DNA from: Squalus acanthias
Taxonomy: Eukaryota
Length of the DNA: 64,000 nt
Reading direction: 5' to 3'
Assembly (NCBI GenBank): GCA_030390025.1
Contig: CM059432.1
Coordinates: 54,252,001-54,316,000, forward strand
The position numbers and the translations under genes are program-made. Position 1 is the stretch's first letter, and each line of letters begins with the position of its first letter. Below, piece by piece: positions 6,360 to 60,371 of the stretch. The notes below the pieces were generated by a model. It saw nothing but the letters and a program-made list of their open reading frames with translations, had not been told where the DNA came from and did not search any database.

Positions 6360-6949
6360 CATCTCTCTCTCTCTCTCTCCTGCTGTTCATTTTGCATCCA
6401 GGTCCTCTCACAGCAAAGGCCAATGATGACATCATCAGAGACGACTTTCAGACTGAAAACACTAATTGGTTCATGGGTTCCCACATGCTGGAACTCAATT
6501 GCCCAATTAGGTGAAAATTGCATCAATCTCCCACATCCAATTGCAGTCGGGTGGATAACACAAAAAGCGGATGACACAACCCCAACCCGCCCCAGTATCA
6601 AAATCCATGTCTCCTTGTCCTAGACTCCCCCACCAGCAGAAAAAGTTTCTCTCTATCTACTATATCAATTCCTTTCAAAATCCTAAAATCCTCAATCAAA
6701 TCACGCCTTAACCATCTATATTCCAGGGAATACAAGCCTAGTTGTAGGAAGTTCTGGCATAGGTTAGGACCCAGCATATCTCAGGCTTTTTCCATTCATC
6801 TCCACTAGATTCCTGTTGCAGATATGGCAGGAGTCTGCCAGAACACTGTATTCTTAGGATATGATGTGGAGATGCCGGCGTTGGACTGGGGTGGACAAAA
6901 ATGAGAAGTCGCACAACACCAGGTTATAGTCCAACAGATTTATTTAATT

Positions 6950-6988
6950 TTACAAGCTTTCGAAGCAGTTCGCTCCTTCGTCAGGTAA
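6950..6988 (-). ncRNA. Minimal type I hammerhead ribozyme motif
   Basis: Reverse complement reads UUAC-CUGACGA-A-GGAGC(gaacu)GCUUC-GAAA-GC-UU-GUAA. Confidence 0.75.
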
Positions 6989-7239
6989 GTTAGCAATGAG
7001 AGAATCTCCCAGAATTCACAATTTAAACCCAGACAAAATCTATTCACATTATTCCCTACAACAAAGAGCACAGCCAAGACAATGAGATGTGTCCCAGGGG
7101 GTCCAACGTGTCAAACCACCTGCTGGCTGCATATCCTGTCAATTTGTGTTCTTGTGTTAGTCTTTTTTTGTGTGAATAATGTGAATAGATTTTGTCTGGG
7201 TTTAAATTGTGAATTCTGGGAGATTCTCTCATTGCTAAC

Positions 7240-7278
7240 TTACCTGACGAAGGAGCGAACTGCTTCGAAAGCTTGTAA
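7240..7278 (+). ncRNA. Minimal type I hammerhead ribozyme motif
   Basis: TTAC CTGACGA A GGAGC gaact GCTTC GAAA GCTT GTAA: intact core, stem I, stem II and palindromic stem III. Confidence 0.75.
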
Positions 7279-7439
7279 AATTAAATAAATCTGTTGGACT
7301 ATAACCTGGTGTTGTGCGACTTCTCATTCTTAGGATATCTATAAGGCTTTCTTGTAATTATTTTTGTAATTTTATGCTAGCACTTAGGCATTCAGGAGCC
7401 AGTTATCATTCATCTTTTTCTGCCACTAGCCTCTTTTAC

Positions 7440-34660: not shown

Positions 34661-34800
34661 ATGCGGAGATGCCGGTGTTGGACTGGGGTGGACAAAATTG
34701 AGAGGTCGCACAACACCAGGTTATAGTCCAACAGTTTTATTTGAAATCACAAGCTTTCGGAGCTATCGATTGCCCCTTCCTCAGGTGAAGTAAATAGATA
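34661..34800 (-). mobile_element. Short Penelope-type insert, same family as 6863 (right limit uncertain)
   Basis: ggagatgccggtgttggactggggtggacaaaa...gttatagtccaacag block shared with 6863-6990. Confidence 0.75.
34747..34788 (-). ncRNA. Minimal type I hammerhead ribozyme motif
   Basis: Reverse complement reads UCAC-CUGAGGA-A-GGGGC(aaucgaua)GCUCC-GAAA-GCUU-GUGA. Confidence 0.75.
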
Positions 34801-42957: not shown

Positions 42958-45499
42958 GTTCATCAATGTGAAGCTCATCTGCAACCACAAAAAGATCATT
43001 ATGCAAGTGTGTGCAAGATTCCCAGGGAGCTACCATGATGCATTTGTCCTGCACCACTCCACCCTCCCTGATCACTTCGCACCTCCAAACAGACTTACCG
43101 TCTAGCTGCTTGGAGACAAGGGCTGTCCACTTAAGACATGGTTGATGACACCCCTGAGGAGCCCAATCAATAAGGCCTAAGAGCGCTACAATCAAAGCCA
43201 TATGACGATGAGATGTGTCATTAAGCAAACAATCGGGATGCTGAAGATGCGCTTCAGGCTCCTCGACAGATCTGGAGGCGAACTTCAATATGCGGCAGCC
43301 AGGCTCTGAAGAATGATTGTGGCTTGCTGTGTTCTGCAGAACAGTGCAGCAGCAAGGATTGGAGCTGTAGGAGGAGCAAGGCACAGAGCACATTGCCTCT
43401 TCAGAGGAGAAAGATGACAAGGAGGAGGAGGAGGAAGAGGAATGTCAGGTGTCCATTGCACCAGCAGTGGTGCACATTGCTGCCCGGGATGCTTGGGATG
43501 GACTCATCATGGTAAGATTTAGTTAGGTTGCACCACTGTAGCCATCTGGCAGCCACATGCTGAACCCACTTGCCCCCTCCCCCAGCACAAAGCAGTCCCG
43601 CAATCAGCAAGGCATCCCTTTCACAGACACCCATTGCTCAGATTTAAGTCTTGTCTTACCAAGCATTAGAACTGAGAAGGCCAGTTGCCAGGTTGCAGGC
43701 AAAAATGGGCAAGACTGGAAAGTGGTGCAAAGCAATAATTTTATATGTGGCTCAAAACTTATACATTAACTTATCAGAGCAACATGTCTATCACACCCAT
43801 GTGCACAACCTTGTGCAACTACTAATCTTTCATTTTCCTTTTCCTACAGCTCCTATGCCGTGTAACTCCTGTGGCTCCAGCAGAGGTAGAGGCAGGCTGC
43901 TCACATCCCTGCCCTGACTGCTGAGATGCTCTTGGCTGACGTTCTCTGGGTTTTGGAGCCCATGAGGGCCCCGCCAAACCCTGCTCCACCTCCACCTGTG
44001 CAGGAGCAGGCTCGACAATCGGGACATGAGGCAGCAGGTGGAGTACTGACTGAGGTGGGGCAATGGGTGAGAAACATAGAAATATAGAAAAATAGGAGCA
44101 GGAGTAGGCCATTCGGCCCATCGAGCCTGCTCCGCCATTCAATATGATCATGGCTGATCCTCTATCTCGATACCATATTCCCGCTCTCTTCCCATACCCC
44201 TTGATGCCTTTTGTGTCTAGAAATCTATCTATCTCCTTCTTAAATATATTCAGTGACTTGGCCTCCACAGCCTTCTGTGGTAGAGAATTCCACAGGTTCA
44301 CCACCCTCTAAGTGAAGAAATTTCTCCTCATCTCAGTCCTAAATGTCCTACCCCGTATCCTGAGACTGTGACCCCTCGTTCTAGACCCCCCAGCCAGGGG
44401 AAACATCTTCCCTGCATCCAGTCTGTCTAGCCCTGTCAGAATTTTGTACGTTTCAATGAGATCCCCTCTCATTCTTCTAAACTCTAGTGAATACAGGCCT
44501 AGTCGACCCAATCTCTCCTCATACGACAGTCCTGCCATCCCAGGAATCAGTCTGGTGAATCTTCGCTGCACTCCCTCTATGGCAAGTATATCCTTTCTTA
44601 GGTAAGGAGACCAAAACTGCACACAGTACTCCAGGTGTGGTCTCACCAAGGCCTTGTATAACTGTAGTAAGACATCCTTGCTTCTGTACTCAAATCCTCT
44701 TGCAATGAAGTCCAACATACCATTTGCCTTCCTAACTGCTTGCTGCACCTGCATGTTTGCTTTCAGTGACTGATGTACAAGGACACCCAGGTCCCTTTGT
44801 ACATCACCATTTTCCAATCTATCACCATTTAAATGATACTCTGCCTTTCTGTTTTTCCTACCGAAGTGGATAACTTCACATTTATCACGTTGTACTGCAT
44901 CTGCCATGTATTTGCCCACTCACTCAACTTGTCTAAATTGCCTTAAAGCCTCTTTGCATCCTCCTCACAACTCACAATCCCACCTAGTTTTGTGTCATCA
45001 GCAAACTTGGAAATATTACATTTGGTTCCCTCATCCAAATCATTGATATATATTGTGACTAGCTGGGGCCCAAGCACTGATCCCTGTGGTACCCCACTAG
45101 TCACCGCCTGCCACCCCAAAAATGACCCATTTGTTCCTACTCTCTGTTTCCTGTCTGTTAACCAATTTTTAATCCATGCCAGTATATTACCCCCAATCCC
45201 ATGTGCTTTAATTTTGCACACTAACCTCATATGTGGGACTTTATCAAAGGCCTTCTGAAAATCCAAATGCACCACATCCACTGGTTCTCCCTTATCTATT
45301 CTACCAGTTACATCCTCAAAAAACTCCAGTAGGTTTGTCAAACATGATTTCCCTTTCATAAATCCATGTTGACTTTGTGTAATCCCGTTGATATTTTCTA
45401 AGTGTCCTGTTATCACATCCTTTATAATAGACTCTAGCATTTTCCCTGCTACTGATATTAGGCTGACCGGTCCGTAGTTCTGTGTTTTCTCTCTCTCTC

Positions 45500-51473: not shown

Positions 51474-51830
51474 GGGTGAAAAATTCGGTATCGACCATTT
51501 TGGGGCGCTGACATCGCCTGGACGCTAACTTTAGCGCCCGGCGCTAATTAGCGCTGGCAAACGCGAAATTGAATTTTAGCGCCCCAAGAGGGAAGTGGAG
51601 CGCTAAATCAAATGCTACACACTTCTCTTAGGGCGCTAACATCGCAGAGCAGGGCGCTACCTTCAGAACACTAATCAAGTTCCAGCGCTGTCAATTAGAG
51701 AGTCCTCAGACAGACTGGTGCTTTCCAGTTCTTAAAGGGGAGGTTCAATCATGCTGCACAGCCTCACTCTGATCATTGCTGCTTGTGAGCTGGGCCTGCA
51801 AGGAGCTGAAAGCCTTCATTCAAGCAATTG

Positions 51831-53726
51831 ATGGCTGATCAGAGGCCCAGAGAGAGAGCTTGCCGGTTTAGCGACCACGCCTTAGAGGCTCTGGTCGCGG
51901 CTGTGGAATACCGATGGGCAGTGCTCTTCCCAGACACTGACAGGAGGCCATTGCCACAGGCCTTTAGGAGGATGTGGAGGGAGGTCGCCCAGCACGTGTC
52001 GGCCAGAAGTGTGGTTCCCAGAACTCCCACCCAGTGCCGGAAGAAATTCAACGACCTCACTCGGGTGGTCAGGGTGAGTAGATGCTTCAAAAACCTTTAT
52101 ATGCCACCATCTCAACCTCACTCTGTGCACACACTGTATAAACTGCCACATCCCCAACACTCACCCACCTACTATGCCTACCTACTAAAAGTGACATGCA
52201 CATCTCACGCCTTGCATACATTAACAGCCATTCAACTATGGTAGGCACATATGCCAAACACATAGCTGCACACTCACTCACACGCTTTCCTTTTTCTTGC
52301 AGGCCAAGCTTGCTCACAACAGGAGGGAGCAGCTATGAACGGGAGGAGGTGAGGTGGACCTGCACCCCCTTACAGACCTGGAGGAGTGAGTGGGCCACAT
52401 CATTGCCGCCCAGGTCGTGGGTGCTGTGGCCGTCTGAGACGTCGACCCCCTTGGGAATAACAACGGTATGTTCATCACCTCTCCCTCTTCTCTCATACCA
52501 CTTCCCCTCACACCACTAGCCTTATCCACTTTCCATCGAAGTATACTTTCTCCATTCCTTGCTCCCTTCCTGCCCCCCTCCCCTGACCTTAAACCCACTC
52601 TTGTGTCTTTATGCTTTCAGATAATCAGCCACCATATGACCAGCCTATCCCTCAGCCTCCCAGTGACGCGGGGGAGGAGGAGGAAGAACAAGCCAGAGCC
52701 TCACTGCCTGTGTCTCCCAAAGGCGCTAGGTCCGATAATGGGGTGACACGGTCGCTGGAGGGGAGCCTAGTACATGGGGCTGATGTGGGTGAAGCTCAGG
52801 GACAGAGCAGGCTGCAGCAACACCATGGGAAAAGGGAAGCTTGGGGGCCATCTCCCCGGAGGGTGAGTTCACACGCGAGTTCTAGCTGCACAGGACTCAG
52901 ATGCGGACCTCGATGTGGAGGCGATGACCACCTGGGCGATGGGCATACACACCGAACTCATGGGTGCAATGGCAAGGGTGCCCGAGAGCATGGATGCACT
53001 GGCTAGGAGCTTGAAGGAGTCCGCCTCCAGCATTGCTCTCATCTCTGCGCACACCATCGAGCCCATCCTTGGCAGTTGGTCGACTCGCAGAGAGACCGTG
53101 AGGACCCAGATCTCATGCCGCATGTCACAGGTGAGGTGGCAGCAGCTATTGCAGCACAGGCTGAGGCAACGCAACAGCTTAGTGCTGTAATGGAGTCAGT
53201 GGTTGCTGGCATGTAATCTCAGACTGGTCTCATGCAGTCTCAGATTGATGCCATGCAAACGCTGACTGCTGCCATCATCGCTGTGTCGCCCACTGTCCAC
53301 CGGGGATCTCATGGTGCCACAGCAGGCCAGCAATCTGTGCTCAAGCAGATTGCTCCAGATGCTGAGGTTCTGCCCCGGGGGAGTGGCAGTGTGTTGGTCA
53401 AGCAGGAAGGTGCTGTCCTCTCTCAGGATGACAGCATTCTTGCTCCCACCTCTGCCACTCCGCCATTGCACTTGCCGCAGCCTGTAACCCAGCTATCCAA
53501 GACTACTGCCGCCCATGCTGAGGTGGTGCAGTCTGCAGCCGGGCCTTCCAGGCCCAGAGCTGGTCGAGGGCGTCCTGCAAGGCCATCTGCAGTCTCTGGC
53601 TCCCAGACTCAGCAGCCTTCAACCAGCCTTGCTGCAGCCACTGGGGCCACATTATGGAGGAGCAGTAGGGTTGGGAGAGGGGGGGAGCTCAAAAGGGGAG
53701 GGAAATCATTGAAGAAGGGGGAATAA
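51831..53726 (+). pseudogene. Harbinger Myb/SANT partner, exons 51831-52073, 52303-52465 and 52621-53726
   Basis: Canonical GT-AG introns. RFSDHALEALV...W.EVA...RTPTQCRKKFNDL, then AKLAHNRREQL*TGGG. In-frame TGA stops and frameshifts. Confidence 0.9.
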
Positions 53727-54190
53727 AGAATACCTTAGTAGCAAATGGGGGTAGTGTGTGTTAATAAAGCGATGTGTTTGTAAATATATTGTGTTTCTTT
53801 ATGAATAGTTGTGTTTCATAACAGATAGTAAATTGTTCATTTGATGATCCACATTTTGTGATGTTTCTCATTTGACCTTTGCCTGGTGATAGGGACCACG
53901 AGCTGGATGTAATGATGTGGTTCTGCTCTGCAAACGCCATGTGATATATCATTTATTGGAAGTGCTGTCTAATGAGGCGCTCACGAACAGCCCTTGCAGA
54001 AGCAAGATTGAGTGGCTCCCTACTCCGTTCCTGCTGCTCCTCCTCCACCGCCTCCTCCTCCTCCGCCTTGTCCTCCTCCTCTCCCTCTTCCTCCTCCTGA
54101 GTTGGACCTGTAGTCCTGGTGGCAATGGCTGGGCCCTCAGAATGGCCAGGTTGTGTAGCATGCAGCACACAACAATGAAAATGGAGACTC

Positions 54191-56151
54191 CAGCAAGCCT
54201 GAGGATTGGGAGCAGTTTAGAGTTCAGCAAAAAAGGACCAAGAGATTGATTAAGCAGGGAAAAATAGAGTATGAGAGTAAACTTGCAAGGAACTTAAAAG
54301 TGGACTGTAAAAGCTTCTACAAGTAGGTAAAAAGAAAATTATTAGTGAAGACAAATGTAGGTCCCTTACAGTCAGAAATGGGAGAATTTATAATGTGGAG
54401 CAAGGAAATGGCAGGGCAATTAAACAAATACTTGGTTCTGTCTTCATGGAAGAGGACACAAATAACTTCCCAGAAATGCTAGAGAACCAAAGGTCTAGTG
54501 AGAAGGAGGAATTAAAGGAAATTAGTATTAGTAAAAAAATAGTGCTGGAAAAATTAATGGGACTGAAAGTTGATAAATCCCTGATCCAGGGCCTGATAAT
54601 CTGCATCCCAGAGTACTAAAAGAGGTAGCCATGGAAATAGTGGATGCATTGGTTGTCATCTTCCAAAATTCTATAGATTATGGAACAGTTCCTGCAGATT
54701 GGAGGGTGGTAAATGTAACCCCACTATTTAAAAAAGGAGGGAGAGAGATAACTGGGAACTATCATCAATAGTAGGGAAAATGCTAGAGTCTATTATAAAG
54801 GATGTGATAACAGGACACTTAGAAAATATCAACGGGATTAGACAAAGTCACATGGATTTATGAAAGGGAAATCGTGTTTGACAAACCTACTGGAGTTTTT
54901 TGAGGATGTAACTGGTAGAATAGATAAGGGAGAACCAGTGGATGTGGTGTATTTGGATTTTCAGAAGGCCTTTGATTAAAGTCCCACATAAGAGGTTAGT
55001 GTGCAAAATTAAAGCACATGGGATTGGAGGTAATATACTGGCATGGATTGAAAATTGGTTAACAGACAGGAAACAGAGAGTAGGAATAAACGGGTCTTTT
55101 TCGGGGTGGCAGGCGGTGACTAGAAAGGTACCGCAGGGATCAGTGCTTGGGCCCCAGCTATTCACAATATATATCAATGACTTGGATGAGGGAACCAAAT
55201 GTAATATTTCCAAGTTTGCTGACGACACAAAACTAGGTGGGATTGTGAGTTGTGAGGAGGATGCAAAGAGGCTTCAAGGCGATTTAGACAAGTTGAGTGA
55301 GTGGGCAAATACATGGCAGATGAAGTATAACGTGGATAAATGTGAAGTTATCCACTTCGGTAGGAAAAACAGAAAGGCAAAGTATCATTTAAATGGTGAT
55401 AGATTGGGAAATGCTGATGTATAAAGGGACCTGGGTGTCCTTGTACACCAGTCACTGAAAGCAAACATGCAGGTGCAGCAAGCAGTTAGGAAGGCAAATG
55501 GTATGTTGGTCTTCATTGCAAGAGGATTTGAGTACAGGAGCAAGGATGTCTTACTACAGTTGTACAGGGCCTTGGTGAGACCACACCTGGAGTACTGTGT
55601 GCATTTTTGGTCTCCTTACCTAAGAAAGGATATACTTGCCATAGAGGGAGTGCAGCGAAGGTTCACCAGACTAATTCCTGGGATGGCAGGACTGTCGTAT
55701 GAGGAGAGATTGGGTCGACTAGGCCTGTATTCACTAGAGTTTAGAAGAATGAGAGGGGATCTCATTGAAACATATAAAACTCTGACAGGGCTAGACAGAC
55801 TGGATGCAGGGAGGATGTTTCCCCTGGCTGGGGGGTCTAGAACGAGGGGTCACAGTCTCAGGATACGGGGTAGGACATTTAGGACTGACATGAGGAGAAA
55901 TTTCTTCACTCAGAGGGTGGTGTACCTGTGGAATTCTCTACCACAGAAGGCTTTGGAGGCCAAGTCACTGAATATATTTAAGAAGGAGATAGATAGATTT
56001 CTAGACACAAAAGGCATCAAGGGCTATGGGGAGAGAGCGGGAATATGGTATTGAGATAGAAGATCAGCCATGATCATATTGAATGGCGGAGCAGGCTCGA
56101 AGGGCCGAATGGCCTACTCCTGCTCCTATTTTTCTATGTTTTCTATGTTTC
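54191..56151 (+). mobile_element. Young 5'-truncated CR1 LINE
   Basis: RT motifs and (TTTCTATG)n tail. Small target deletion relative to the intact homologous transposase at 58912-58945. Confidence 0.93.
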
Positions 56152-56428
56152 TACTGCAGGGCTCCTCCAGAGCGGTCAAGGCAGCGGAACCGTTGCTTTA
56201 GCACCCTGATAGTATGTTTGATCAGGTTCCTGGTGGCGCTATGGCTGTCATTGTATGCGTGCCGAGCAGGAGTATTGGGGTTGCAGAGGGGTGTCATCAG
56301 CCAGGTGGCGAGTGGATAACCCTTGTCTCCGAACATCCAGCCGCGAGCTTCATGTGGTGGTTGCATTAGTGCTGGGACTCCAGTCTGTCGCAGGATGAAT
56401 GCATTGTGGCTGCTGCCAGGATAGTGGG

Positions 56429-56541
56429 ATAAAATAAAAACAGAAAATGCTGGAGATACTCAGCAGGTCAGGCAGCATCTGTGAAGAGAGAAGCAGAGTT
56501 AACGTTTCAGGTCGATGACCTTTCGTCAGACTGGGCGAAGG
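56429..56541 (-). mobile_element. 113-bp hammerhead-bearing retro-insert (second Penelope-type family)
   Basis: 14-bp TSD GCCAGGATAGTGGG at 56415-56428 and 56542-56555. Confidence 0.88.
56497..56533 (-). ncRNA. Minimal type I hammerhead ribozyme motif
   Basis: Reverse complement reads AGU-CUGACGA-A-AGGUC(auc)GACCU-GAAA-CGU-UA-ACU, with palindromic AACGUU at stem III. Confidence 0.8.
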
Positions 56542-57719
56542 GCCAGGATAGTGGGCATTGACAGCGAGGATGCGCTGTCTGTGGTTGCACACCAACTGAA
56601 CGTTCAGAGAGTGGTAGCCTTTGCAGTTACGGAACACCTCTGCATTGTGATGAGATGCCCGCAATGCCACGTGGGTGCAGTCAATGGCGCCCTGAACCAT
56701 GGGAAAGCCCGTTATCCTTGCAAAACCACATGAGCTTTCATCCTGTTTCTCTCTGGTCATGGGGAATGAGATGTACTCCCTTCTCCATCCGTAGAGAGCA
56801 TCTGTTACCTCTCGGATGCAGCAATGGACAGTGAAATTTTTGCAATATCCCCTGTTGAAGACTGGAAGGAGCCGGTTGCGTAGAAATTGAGAGTGACTGT
56901 GACCTTAATTGCCACTGAGAGAGACGTCCTGGTCCTGAGTTGAGGCTGGAGGTCTGCCTGCAGGATGTGGCAGAGCTCTGTGACCACATCCTTGCTGAAG
57001 CGGAGCCTTCTATGGCACTGCTCCTCTGAGAGATGAATGTAGGAGAAATGCTGCCGGAATACCCATGGAGGGTAAGACCTCCTGTTGAGAGCCCTGTTGG
57101 CCCTCCTCCCTCTGGCCACGTTTTGCAATCTTTTCCGCTGCCTCCGATGGTGACGCTGGAGGGCGAGGTCCAGTGCCAGTACAGCCCCCATTAAATGATG
57201 GAAATGTTGCACTATCAAATGTAACCCAAATGAAAGTGGTAAATTTTTCTCAGCCAGAATAGTCATTCAAGTTGAAAACGATCAAATGGGTAAAAGCGCC
57301 TGTCTGCTTGTGTCAAACTGACAAGGCAGCATTGTTTGCCAACAAAATAAAAACGAGAAGTTGCCCCCTTCAGAGCTCATCTGACTGCAAACCACCTCCT
57401 GAGCCTGTCGTTGCTAATGACAGGTGCTCAGGCAGGGGGCGAGAGCATATTTCTGAGCTGGGACGCTGCGCACCCGGATGCCGTCATGATCTCCGGGCGT
57501 AGGAGATCGTGGCACTAGTGGTTACCACCGCCGCAAACCTCCAGCTCAATCTCGCGGCCGTCGGTATGAGCGCCACGCCCGGTCGCAAATTGGTAGCGCC
57601 CCGTTATTGCCCCCGGAGCCACTAACAGGAGGCGCTACGGTACCGAATTTCTCCCCCATAATCTATAAATGATTTAGATGACTGTATTTAAAGAAGATTA
57701 TCCAAATTTACAAATTTTG

Positions 57720-58846
57720 CTAGAACAATGCAAGAGGCCGAGGACGGTGAGGTCTGAGTGGAGCGGTGAATTAAAGTGACAGGCGACTGGAAGCTCGGGG
57801 TCCCCCTTACGGACTGAACGGAGGTGTTCCGCAAAGCGGTCACCCAATCTGCGTTTCGTCTCCCCAATGTAGAGGAGACCACATCGTGAGCAGCGAATAC
57901 AGTATACTAAATTGCAAGAAGTACAAGTAAATCGCTGTTTCACTTGGAAGGGGTGTTTGGGGCCCTGGACAGTGGGAAGAGGGGAGGTATAAGGGCATGT
58001 GTTGCATCTCCTGCGCTTGCACGGGAAGGTGCCGGGCGAAGGGGAAGGGGTGCTGGGGGCGATAGAGGAGTGGACTAGGGTGTCTCGGAGGGAGCGGTCC
58101 CTACGGAATGCTGAAAGGGGAGGTGAGGGGAAGATGCGTTTCATGGTGGGATCACACTGGAGGTGGCGGAAATGGCGGAGGATGATCCATTGAATGTGGA
58201 GGCTGGTGGGGTGAAAGGTGAGGACAAGGGGAACTCTGTCGTGGTTCCGGGAGGGAGGGGCAGGGGTGAGGGCAGAAGTGCGGGAGATAGAACGGACACG
58301 GTCAAGGGCCATGTCAAACACTGTAGAGGGGAATCCTCGGTTGAGGAAAAAGGAAGACATGTCAGAAGCACTGGTATGGAAGGTGGCATCGTCAGAGCAG
58401 ATGCGGCGGAGACGGAGAAACTGAGAGAATGGAATAGAGTCCTTACAGGAGGCGGGGTGGGAGGAAGTGTAGTCCAGGTAGCTGTGGGAGTCAGTGGGCT
58501 TGTAGTGAATGTTTGTCAATAACCTATCTCCAGAGATGGAGACGGAGAAGTCGAGGAAGGGAAGGGAAGAGTCGGAGATGGACCATGTGAAGGTGAGGGA
58601 AGGGTGGAAATTGGAAGCAAAGTGAATGAAATTATCTAGTTCAGGGCAACAGCAGGAAACGGCACCGATACAGTCATCAATGTACCGGAAAAAGAGGTGA
58701 GGGAGGGGACCTGTGTAGGACTGGAACAAAGAATGTTCACATATCCCACGAAAAGGCAGACATAGCATTTCTGGTACATTGATGACTGTATCGGTGCCGT
58801 TTCCTGCTCTCACCCTGAACTAGATAATTTCATTCACTTTGCTTCC
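57720..58846 (-). mobile_element. Penelope-like retroelement fragment (RT C-terminal half plus GIY-YIG endonuclease), with a terminal inversion
   Basis: ORF 57698-58813 contains FFRYIDD, LPFLD, YKPTDSHSYL, KDSIPFSQFLRLRRICS and NLVYCIRCSRCGLLYIGETKR. Inverted arms 58613-58686 and 58773-58846. Confidence 0.93.
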
Positions 58847-60371
58847 CTGGTGGCATTGGCTGGGTCCTGAGGATTGCCAGGTTATGAAGAATGCAGCACA
58901 CAACTATGAAGAGGGAGACTCGCTCAGGCGAGTACTGCAGGGCTCCTCCTGAGTGGTCCAGACAGCGGAACCGTTGCTTGAGCACGCCCATCGTCTGCTC
59001 ACCGATGTTCCTGGTGGCGAGATGGCTCTCATTCTACCACAGCTCAGCAGGGGTGTTGGGGTTACGGAGCGGTGTAATCAGCCAAGTGTAGAGTGGATAA
59101 CCCTTCTCCCCGAGGAGCCAACCACTTGGCTGATGCGGTGCCTGGAAAAGGTCTGGCACACCAGTCTGGTGCAGGATGAAAGCATCGTGGCTGCTGCCAG
59201 GATAGCGGGCATTGACAGCGAGTATCAGCTGTCTGTGGTCACAGACCAACTGGACGTTTAAGGAGTGGAACCCCTTGCGGTTTCGGAAAACCTCTGTATT
59301 CTCATGCGGTGCCCGCAATGCCACATGCATGCAGTCAATGGCGCCCTACACCATGGGGAAGCCTGCTCTCCTCGCAAAGCCCAATGCGCGTTCATGCTGT
59401 TTGGCCCGGGTCAGCGGGAAAGAGATATACTGGCGTCTCCTTTTATAGAGGGCATTTGTGACCTGACAGATACAGCAATGGAACGCGAACTGGGAGATAT
59501 TGGCGATGTCCCCAGTAGCTGCTTGAAAGGAGCCGGTGGCATAAAAATTCACAGCCACTGTGACCTTCACTGCCACCGACAGAGACATCCTGGTCCTCAG
59601 TTGAGGCTGCAGATCTGGCTGCAGCAGGTGGCAGAGCTCAGTGACCACCTTCTTGCTGAAGCGCAGCCTGTGCAAACACTGCTCCTCAGACAAATTAATG
59701 TAGGAGAATTGTTGCCGAAATACCCTGGGAGGGTAAGGTCTCCTGTACAGAGGCCTGTTGGCCTTCCTCTGTCTGGCCATGATTGCCACTCTCTCTCTGC
59801 GTCTCTGTTGCCTCCGATTCTACAGGCACAGGACGACGCCCCGAATCAGTGCAGCCCCCAAAGTCTCTTGGTAATCGAAGTAATGACGGTCAAATCCAAA
59901 AGTACCTGCAAAGTGATGCTCAGTAGCCAAAACTACTTCACACAGCGTTGACTCTATGCAGAAGTCTCTCCTTCTCTCTCTCAGAATCTCTCTCTCTCTG
60001 TCAGAATGAGTGGTGCAAAAATGTCTACCACAGAAAAAGCCAGGAAGAGGCCACCTTTAAATAGCGCCGCCCCAGCCCCTCACCGACTGGGAAACATTCC
60101 AGTCTCCCTGTCGTTGCTTGCGCCAGGCGGAAAGGAGGGGGGCGCCACTTAATATCCGGTCCGGGGTGCCACAAGGGCGTTGCACGCTCGACTGACGTCA
60201 TGATCTGCGGGCGCAGGAGATCGGAGCGGTAGTGTTTAGCGCTGCCGCAAAATGTCTGGTCAATTTCGCGAGCGGCACAGACATCACCGTGCCCGGGCGC
60301 TAGTTGCTTTGCGCCCCATTAGCGCCCTCTTAAGGCGCTAACGGGAGGCGCAAACCTACCAAATTTTCCCC
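58847..60371 (-). mobile_element. Truncated Harbinger H5: transposase (~59860-58847) plus one terminus
   Basis: [28 protein letters not shown] motifs. Terminus 60290-60371 is nearly the same as the MITE end at 24758-24846. Confidence 0.88.

Follow-up and report, generated by a model that had tools for sequence, protein, structure and literature searches.

Background

The described systems closest to the insert studied here are EN+ Penelope-like elements (PLEs) and the hammerhead ribozymes that they carry, and all statements on them refer to the available text of the sources cited. A Zn-finger-like CX2-5CxxC linker that joins RT to EN defines the Neptune PLEs and is shared with Nematis (PMC8557442). 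Dispersed single hammerheads of PLEs were already described in 2014 (PMC4209133), and a PLE origin of retrozymes is presented in a 2026 preprint (10.64898/2026.07.22.740005). In the case of the Anolis Poseidon RT, the tail is set by two internal sites at which reverse transcription begins; RNA downstream of these sites is required, while both target strands are extended and ribozyme cleavage is not needed (PMC11167929).

We have analyzed a 113-bp, hammerhead-bearing insert in a 64-kb stretch of genomic DNA, referred to throughout as the window. We consider it probable that this insert is a terminal pseudo-LTR (pLTR) of a Neptune-type PLE, flanked by a 14-bp target-site duplication (TSD), which would have arisen through internal priming about 100 nt inside the RNA and run-off at the RNA 5′ end before the hammerhead core.

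Methods

Positions within the element are counted in element sense from window position 56467, which places core C3 at -62 and the predicted cut between -34 and -33. Copies were sampled from the exact matches to a 35-mer of the insert, in position order on contig C1. Four of 101 anchors were dropped as duplicates of overlapping loci and three of the first 100 listed places were left out; the resulting sample of 97 copies is unbiased for the 5′ end, favors young copies and contig C1, and counts the arms of a head-to-head pair separately. The 95-copy set includes the window copy and omits three ORF-joined copies. The 30 best-match loci were excluded from the counts because the query biases them. 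The ORF-joined set comprises 90 of 94 ORF-start places. Among 90 loci in which the TTT of the element is replaced, 8 were dropped by a centering filter and 82 were examined.

Results

A 14-bp sequence, GCCAGGATAGTGGG, occurs at 56415-56428 and again, as an exact repeat, at 56542-56555. The repeat is not extendable on either side, and 113 bp lie in between. The same site is present once in two Harbinger paralogs inside the 64-kb window, including an empty site at 59196-59209, and one contig of the public run X19 skips 127 nt here, with 14 letters that fit both sides. The exact TSD, the single-site paralogs and the 127-nt skip together establish a true insertion with a 14-bp TSD, just as the original prediction had proposed. 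The host is a decayed Harbinger-type transposase copy on the minus strand (56152-57266) with paralogs of 71-78% identity; DDE_Tnp_4 matches on either side of the insert confirm that a transposase was split, which had also been claimed. Among 88 TSD calls, that of the window insert is unusual solely in its G+C content (64%, vs a mean of 33%). The surrounding region (window 51800-60000) consists of nested transposons, in which Harbinger Myb/SANT and DDE genes are broken by a LINE piece and two PLE pieces. The LINE-like RT piece measures 1.4 kb and is 96% identical to window 44070-45456.

The insert (56429-56541, minus strand) comprises 7 extra nt at its 5′ junction (56535-56541), 103 nt of PLE pLTR (56432-56534) and 3 nt at its 3′ junction. 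The pLTR segment begins at the hammerhead's 5′ edge, finishes at the first of the family's two 3′ ends and lacks the tail; the insert belongs to the short, tail-less class of stubs. This segment is 96% identical to both pLTRs of a full-length copy, L121. As judged from sequence identity, the insert is therefore a terminal 3′ pLTR segment of an autonomous PLE family and not a separate mini-element. The 7 extra nt may be untemplated or stem from a short template jump. A candidate origin of the latter kind was tried, in which the first 11 nt fit the ORF linker at 10 of 11 positions, but 24 of 300 shuffles match equally well and the match was rejected as evidence. The description of the insert as little more than a hammerhead was correct in that the motif is present but loosely worded, as the motif accounts for 36 of the 113 nt.

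The 35-mer from the insert has 3,363 exact matches in the 3.7-Gb genome, and a 21-mer in the core has 10,791. The repeat is reminiscent of repeats from sharks and rays. Upstream, copies continue into an RT/GIY-YIG ORF, over as much as 2 kb and beyond. In L121, hammerhead motifs are located at 1460 and 4667, 3.2 kb apart and one per end, and the pLTRs that carry them flank the ORF in partial tandem. The single ORF combines an RT with a C-terminal GIY-YIG domain (RVT_1, E=1.5e-5 in L114; GIY-YIG, E=6e-4 in L124; both matches lie below the curated cut-offs of Pfam), and every copy examined carries stops or frameshifts in it. In L121 (1512-1608) and at the 5′ end of L114, a short upstream frame spans the RT start sites and the tail and stops just short of the ATG of the long ORF, which is preceded in these copies by a second acceptor-like sequence.

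An RT/GIY-YIG ORF about 1.2 kb from the insert had been put forward as a candidate partner family. This internal RT/thumb/Zn-linker/GIY-YIG fragment (57723-58766, minus strand; GIY-YIG, E about 5.5e-4) is a separate broken copy with 94.5-95% nucleotide identity to L121 and L098. It is thus related to the insert as supposed, but as a member of the same family rather than as a separate partner. The prediction of a PLE pLTR-type hammerhead is likewise borne out. The insert matches the terminal segments of a full-length copy (L121) of this autonomous family. Both ends of the fragment and any pLTR are missing, which makes it a relative of the insert and not its donor; neither is it part of the same insertion, given that the insert has its own TSD. 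A 79-bp inverted piece of the same PLE ORF adjoins it (58768-58846, plus strand). The fragment contains a C-X4-C-X2-C RT-EN linker, which points to Neptune or Nematis and is the sole feature on which we chose between the two.

A minimal type I hammerhead motif, recognized from sequence and family alignment and with a predicted cleavage site, is located at 56497-56532 on the minus strand. It is made up of the 5′ strand of stem I (56532-56530, one U fewer than in the family), CUGACGA (56529-56523), an extra A, stem II (56521-56509), GAAA (56508-56505), CG, U16.1 (56502), the predicted position 17 (56501) and the 3′ strand of stem I (56500-56497). The CUGACGA, the AGGUC/GACCU stem II and the GAAA that had been reported for the minus strand are all there, and stem II has a pair probability of 0.98-1.0 in the window copy. 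The family reads AGUU ahead of the core and GAAAC-GUU-AACU after stem II, which gives a 4-bp stem I (AGUU/AACU) with no gap at the stem I positions in 56 of 56 long copies. Owing to its missing stem I U, the window copy keeps 1 bp of stem I in the family register and 3 bp in a shifted one. It is this loss that allowed the UA cleavage site and the 3-bp AGU/ACU stem I of the original prediction, both of which are artifacts. In two further hammerhead families of the window, unrelated to this one, the letters differ but the register is kept (UUAC/GUAA at 7244 and UCAC/GUGA at 34784), which supports the GUU register. The family hammerhead is accordingly predicted to cleave after GUU, position 17 being the second U of GAAAC-GUU, and its ACGU palindrome would serve a dimer helix III.

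Several features of the minimal PLE hammerhead are present in the family, namely the CUGANGA/GAAA/UH core, the extra base after A9, the palindromic 15.2-16.2 and a helix I of 4 bp, within the typical 4-5 bp; the window copy has 1 or 3 bp of helix I, depending on the register. Instead of the typical G10.1-C11.1, 73 of 80 copies have A-U at 10.1-11.1 and the other 7 have G-U. The Rfam scan that had been suggested in support of the motif returned no hammerhead match in the sequence at E<=1 or at E<=10. In predicted minimum-energy folds of both monomer and dimer, the core is sequestered by pairing. Cores are intact in 56 of 76 copies and G8, which is part of a CpG, is altered in 8 of 80; the cores decay at CpG like the flanking, neutral DNA. 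Going by its sequence, the hammerhead of the window copy is probably crippled. Elsewhere in the window, a near-perfect inverted pair of ends from another hammerhead-bearing PLE family (6908-7323) has its tails pointing outward and inverted non-element sequence between the cores, and the end of a third such family (34708-34792) has a stem I that is changed yet pairing and a longer stem II.

The 3′ ends of the 95-copy set are bimodal and about 35 nt apart, with 37 copies ending at the first site and 56 carrying the tail, which agrees with the optional 30-40 bp tail of EN+ PLEs. An inverted, 5′-truncated partner copy was found at 33 of 95 anchors. TSDs of 9-18 bp were called in 53 of 95 copies, in short and long copies alike, and 24 of these TSDs measure 13-14 bp.

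Other arrangements were observed among the copies. Among 35 copies whose ORF start is short (32-188 nt beyond the tail), 22 continue directly into a second 5′-truncated pLTR (for example L218, L225, L230, L243, L260, L262, L265 and L303). Such arrangements were likely left by template jumps that landed immediately behind the RT start sites, and their frequency suggests that jumps of this kind are common. The 5′ end lies at +25 to +42, around the first RT start site, in 16 of 90 ORF-joined copies (L217-L306), where 4.6 were expected; flanks and positions vary, so that these ends do not resemble a site-specific Tx1 insertion, and they may result from T-rich microhomology. Two unlinked loci, L021 and L132, carry same-strand hammerheads 267 nt apart and are partial pLTR tandems that would pass a two-unit retrozyme filter. 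Finally, L181 and L184 (G000:C1, ~195.37 and ~198.15 Mb) are head-to-head stubs with a private junction in common, which includes 5 extra bases, and with the same variant in one arm; their TSDs of 14-15 bp differ, they are the sole two such loci genome-wide, and one arm of L184 is 9 nt shorter. They possibly reflect trans re-mobilization of an ORF-less stub, or gene conversion.

The original prediction had proposed a genome-wide tabulation of copy number, boundaries and TSD lengths and had expected defined, non-random boundaries. Alongside the 3,363 matches and the TSD mode of 13-14 bp, such a boundary was indeed found: the 5′ ends of 24 of 97 copies, vs 1.4 expected, fall into a 9-nt stretch immediately 5′ of the core, which gives stubs of about 100 and 135 bp. 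Expressed as a rate, 24 of the 80 copies that reach -60 stop at -60 to -68 (0.038 per nt, vs a background of 0.0022; Poisson P 1e-21). Over the 23 nt that follow (-69 to -91), a stop is seen in 0 of 56. Elsewhere the 5′ ends are evenly distributed, at 0.002-0.003 per nt. The peak is composed of 12 simple inserts and 12 arms of head-to-head pairs. It sits 30 nt upstream of the predicted cut site, near which (-28 to -38) only 4 of 93 junctions fall, a number close to background.

Genome-wide, 1,410 core matches have three non-T bases in place of the element's TTT, and 81 of the 82 such sites examined are junctions (52 simple and 29 inverted). Stubs at the simple junctions measure 97-108 bp in 27 of 52 cases and 125-144 bp in 16. 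A TSD was callable in only 16 of these 52 copies, and in 12 of the 16 it abuts the element with 0-2 extra bases or microhomology. Correction for the three-base filter suggests, by our estimate, a few thousand such junctions in the genome. Of the simple junctions, 6 of 11 at -66 and 1 of 11 at -67 have a G in front of them, which is not a clear cap-G signature. Nested counts were also tried as evidence and rejected: 4,209 of the 10,791 core matches reach -71 and 1,779 reach -79, with the second drop equal to the first, and these drops probably stem from sister subfamilies that differ upstream. Comparison with four contig sets from other organisms, presumed to be RNA, likewise yielded no usable transcript start, end or splice joint.

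The boundary is a property of terminal copies. Among ORF-joined copies that extend to -60, a stop at -60 to -68 occurs in only 1 of 51, vs 24 of 77 terminal copies (Fisher p 1.8e-5), and in 1 of 41 when an ORF of 1150 nt or more is required (p 1.1e-4). An RT that has copied the ORF thus passes this region freely, and the sequence alone does not account for the stop. No description of the 5′ pile-up was found in the literature searched, a scope that most subscription papers and Repbase lie outside.

Discussion

We propose that the stubs would be produced by target-primed reverse transcription, carried out by the RT/GIY-YIG protein of the family on an uncleaved RNA. The 5′ end of this RNA would lie at about -66, the first base of hammerhead stem I, within the initiator-like sequence CCAGTTC. 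Priming would occur internally, at either of the two 3′ sites. RNA downstream of the RT start sites, as priming requires, is offered only by an ORF-joined pLTR. A cDNA of 100 or 135 nt would then run off the RNA 5′ end and be joined to the other target strand with slight trimming, microhomology or extra bases, and priming on both strands would give rise to head-to-head pairs. Internal priming of this kind has been shown in vitro for Anolis Poseidon (PMC11167929), a clade other than Neptune. Were full-length copies likewise templated by a linear RNA that begins at -66, they would be predicted to end there; they do not, and a second type of template must be assumed. Long copies would come from templates in which -66 is no end, whether by tandem read-through, template jump or a circle. 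The stub in the window is most likely a dead-end by-product.

A broader version of this proposal strikes us as rather unlikely. It holds that PLE transcription starts at stem I, that internal priming on the linear RNA yields strong-stop-like, ORF-less units of about 100 or 135 bp by the thousands, that ORF-containing copies derive from an end-less template (a ribozyme-closed circle, tandem read-through or a template jump), and that some stubs are re-copied in trans. If true, stubs re-copied in trans would be the raw material of animal retrozymes.

Other explanations of the pile-up dispense with a transcription start at this position and invoke a splice acceptor, RNA processing or a stop early in synthesis. 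Upstream of the core, a branch-like motif, a pyrimidine tract and CAG resemble a 3′ splice site; in D. virilis, the Penelope intron ends at the 5′ end of helix I (PMC4209133) and the start site lies further upstream (PMC2377424). An RT that has just started could also drop off more readily at -60 to -68. However, the junction flanks have no upstream exon in common, the TSD mostly abuts the element (12 of 16), and splicing gives no reason for the cDNA to stop at the joint, while a stop set by position only is contradicted by the ORF-joined copies (1 of 51). We therefore regard this group of explanations as unlikely. Truncation of a PLE at random 5′ positions, without a fixed boundary, is consistent with the even spread of 5′ ends outside the peak (0.002-0.003 per nt) and with the interpretation of single dispersed minimal hammerheads as probable truncated PLEs (PMC4209133). 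For the class it is refuted by the excess of junctions (24 vs 1.4 expected) and the sharp upstream edge; about 1 in 17 peak copies would be background, which makes this origin quite improbable for the window copy.

The original prediction had favored a retrozyme-like family in its own right, non-autonomous and propagated as a hammerhead unit by PLE enzymes in trans. The two discrete size classes and the thousands of ORF-less copies are in line with such a family, as are the unlinked stubs L181 and L184, with their shared private junction and variant and different TSDs, and a PLE ORF acting in trans on pLTR-flanked DNA has been reported (PMC3846280). Against this, the stubs have no sequence of their own, being 96% identical to the ends of an autonomous element, and no diagnostic variant distinguishes 24 short from 56 long copies at 70 positions (lowest p 0.023, uncorrected, with low power for small subfamilies). 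They do not form tandems (among 214 motif matches, 3 pairs lie on the same strand less than 700 nt apart), their ends lie off the cut site (4 of 93 junctions at -28 to -38), and the decay of their core matches that of neutral DNA (8 of 80 copies with an altered G8, 56 of 76 cores intact). With no sequence difference between short and long copies, rare tandems and a core that decays at CpG as the flanking DNA does, there is no evidence for a separate, selected family, and we consider its existence very improbable. The claim of a non-autonomous unit is accordingly abandoned for a terminal segment of an autonomous family, with a TSD length common to copies of all lengths and ends that do not coincide with the cut site.

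The insert itself is ordinary, one of thousands of PLE stubs, and the copy statistics matter more. The anatomy of the copies, with two 3′ ends, inverted partners and TSDs, is known PLE architecture (PMC8557442, PMC3846280), and our results are mostly known biology plus one testable mechanistic clue, the 5′ boundary. Its sharpness in terminal and not in ORF-joined copies points to two template types, and the pile-up names an exact candidate position for the RNA 5′ end. These observations touch on where PLE RNA starts, on the role of the hammerhead and on how partial tandems form. They also serve as a warning that short, TSD-flanked hammerhead inserts need a family-level test before they are labeled retrozymes.

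The family compares with described systems as follows. With EN+ PLEs and their 5′-truncated and solo-pLTR insertions (PMC8557442, PMC3846280), it shares an ORF with RT, C-terminal GIY-YIG and a Cys linker, pLTRs with a hammerhead in partial tandem, an optional tail of 30-40 bp, head-to-head copies and TSDs. The available text of these sources reports that 5′ truncation is heavy, but mentions neither a favored 5′ end at the hammerhead nor a difference between terminal and ORF-joined pLTRs; the TSDs in their Adineta cases measure 8-10 bp, whereas those of the present family are longer, with a mode of 13-14 bp. Metazoan PLE type I hammerheads (PMC4209133) have in common with the family the core, the extra base between 9 and 10.1, the short helix I, the palindromic 15.2-16.2 and an occurrence as thousands of dispersed single motifs. 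Their 10.1-11.1 pair is typically G-C, whereas it is A-U here, and the window copy is one stem I base short. In Poseidon PAc of Anolis carolinensis (PMC11167929), too, the tail is defined by two neighboring 3′ ends, insertions occur on both strands and copy ends show no trace of ribozyme cleavage; the Poseidon ORF starts in stem II, whereas in the present family a short upstream frame and the tail precede the start of the long ORF. Animal non-LTR retrozymes (10.64898/2026.07.22.740005, PMC7761336) are also non-coding, carry a type I hammerhead and are kin to PLE pLTRs. According to the same sources they are tandem, with a hammerhead in each unit and circles cut at the ribozyme site. The insert, in contrast, is a single TSD-flanked unit with ends off the cut site, and neither tandem units, ends set by cleavage nor a lineage of its own were found. 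The insert is a truncated EN+ PLE insertion and behaves as one.
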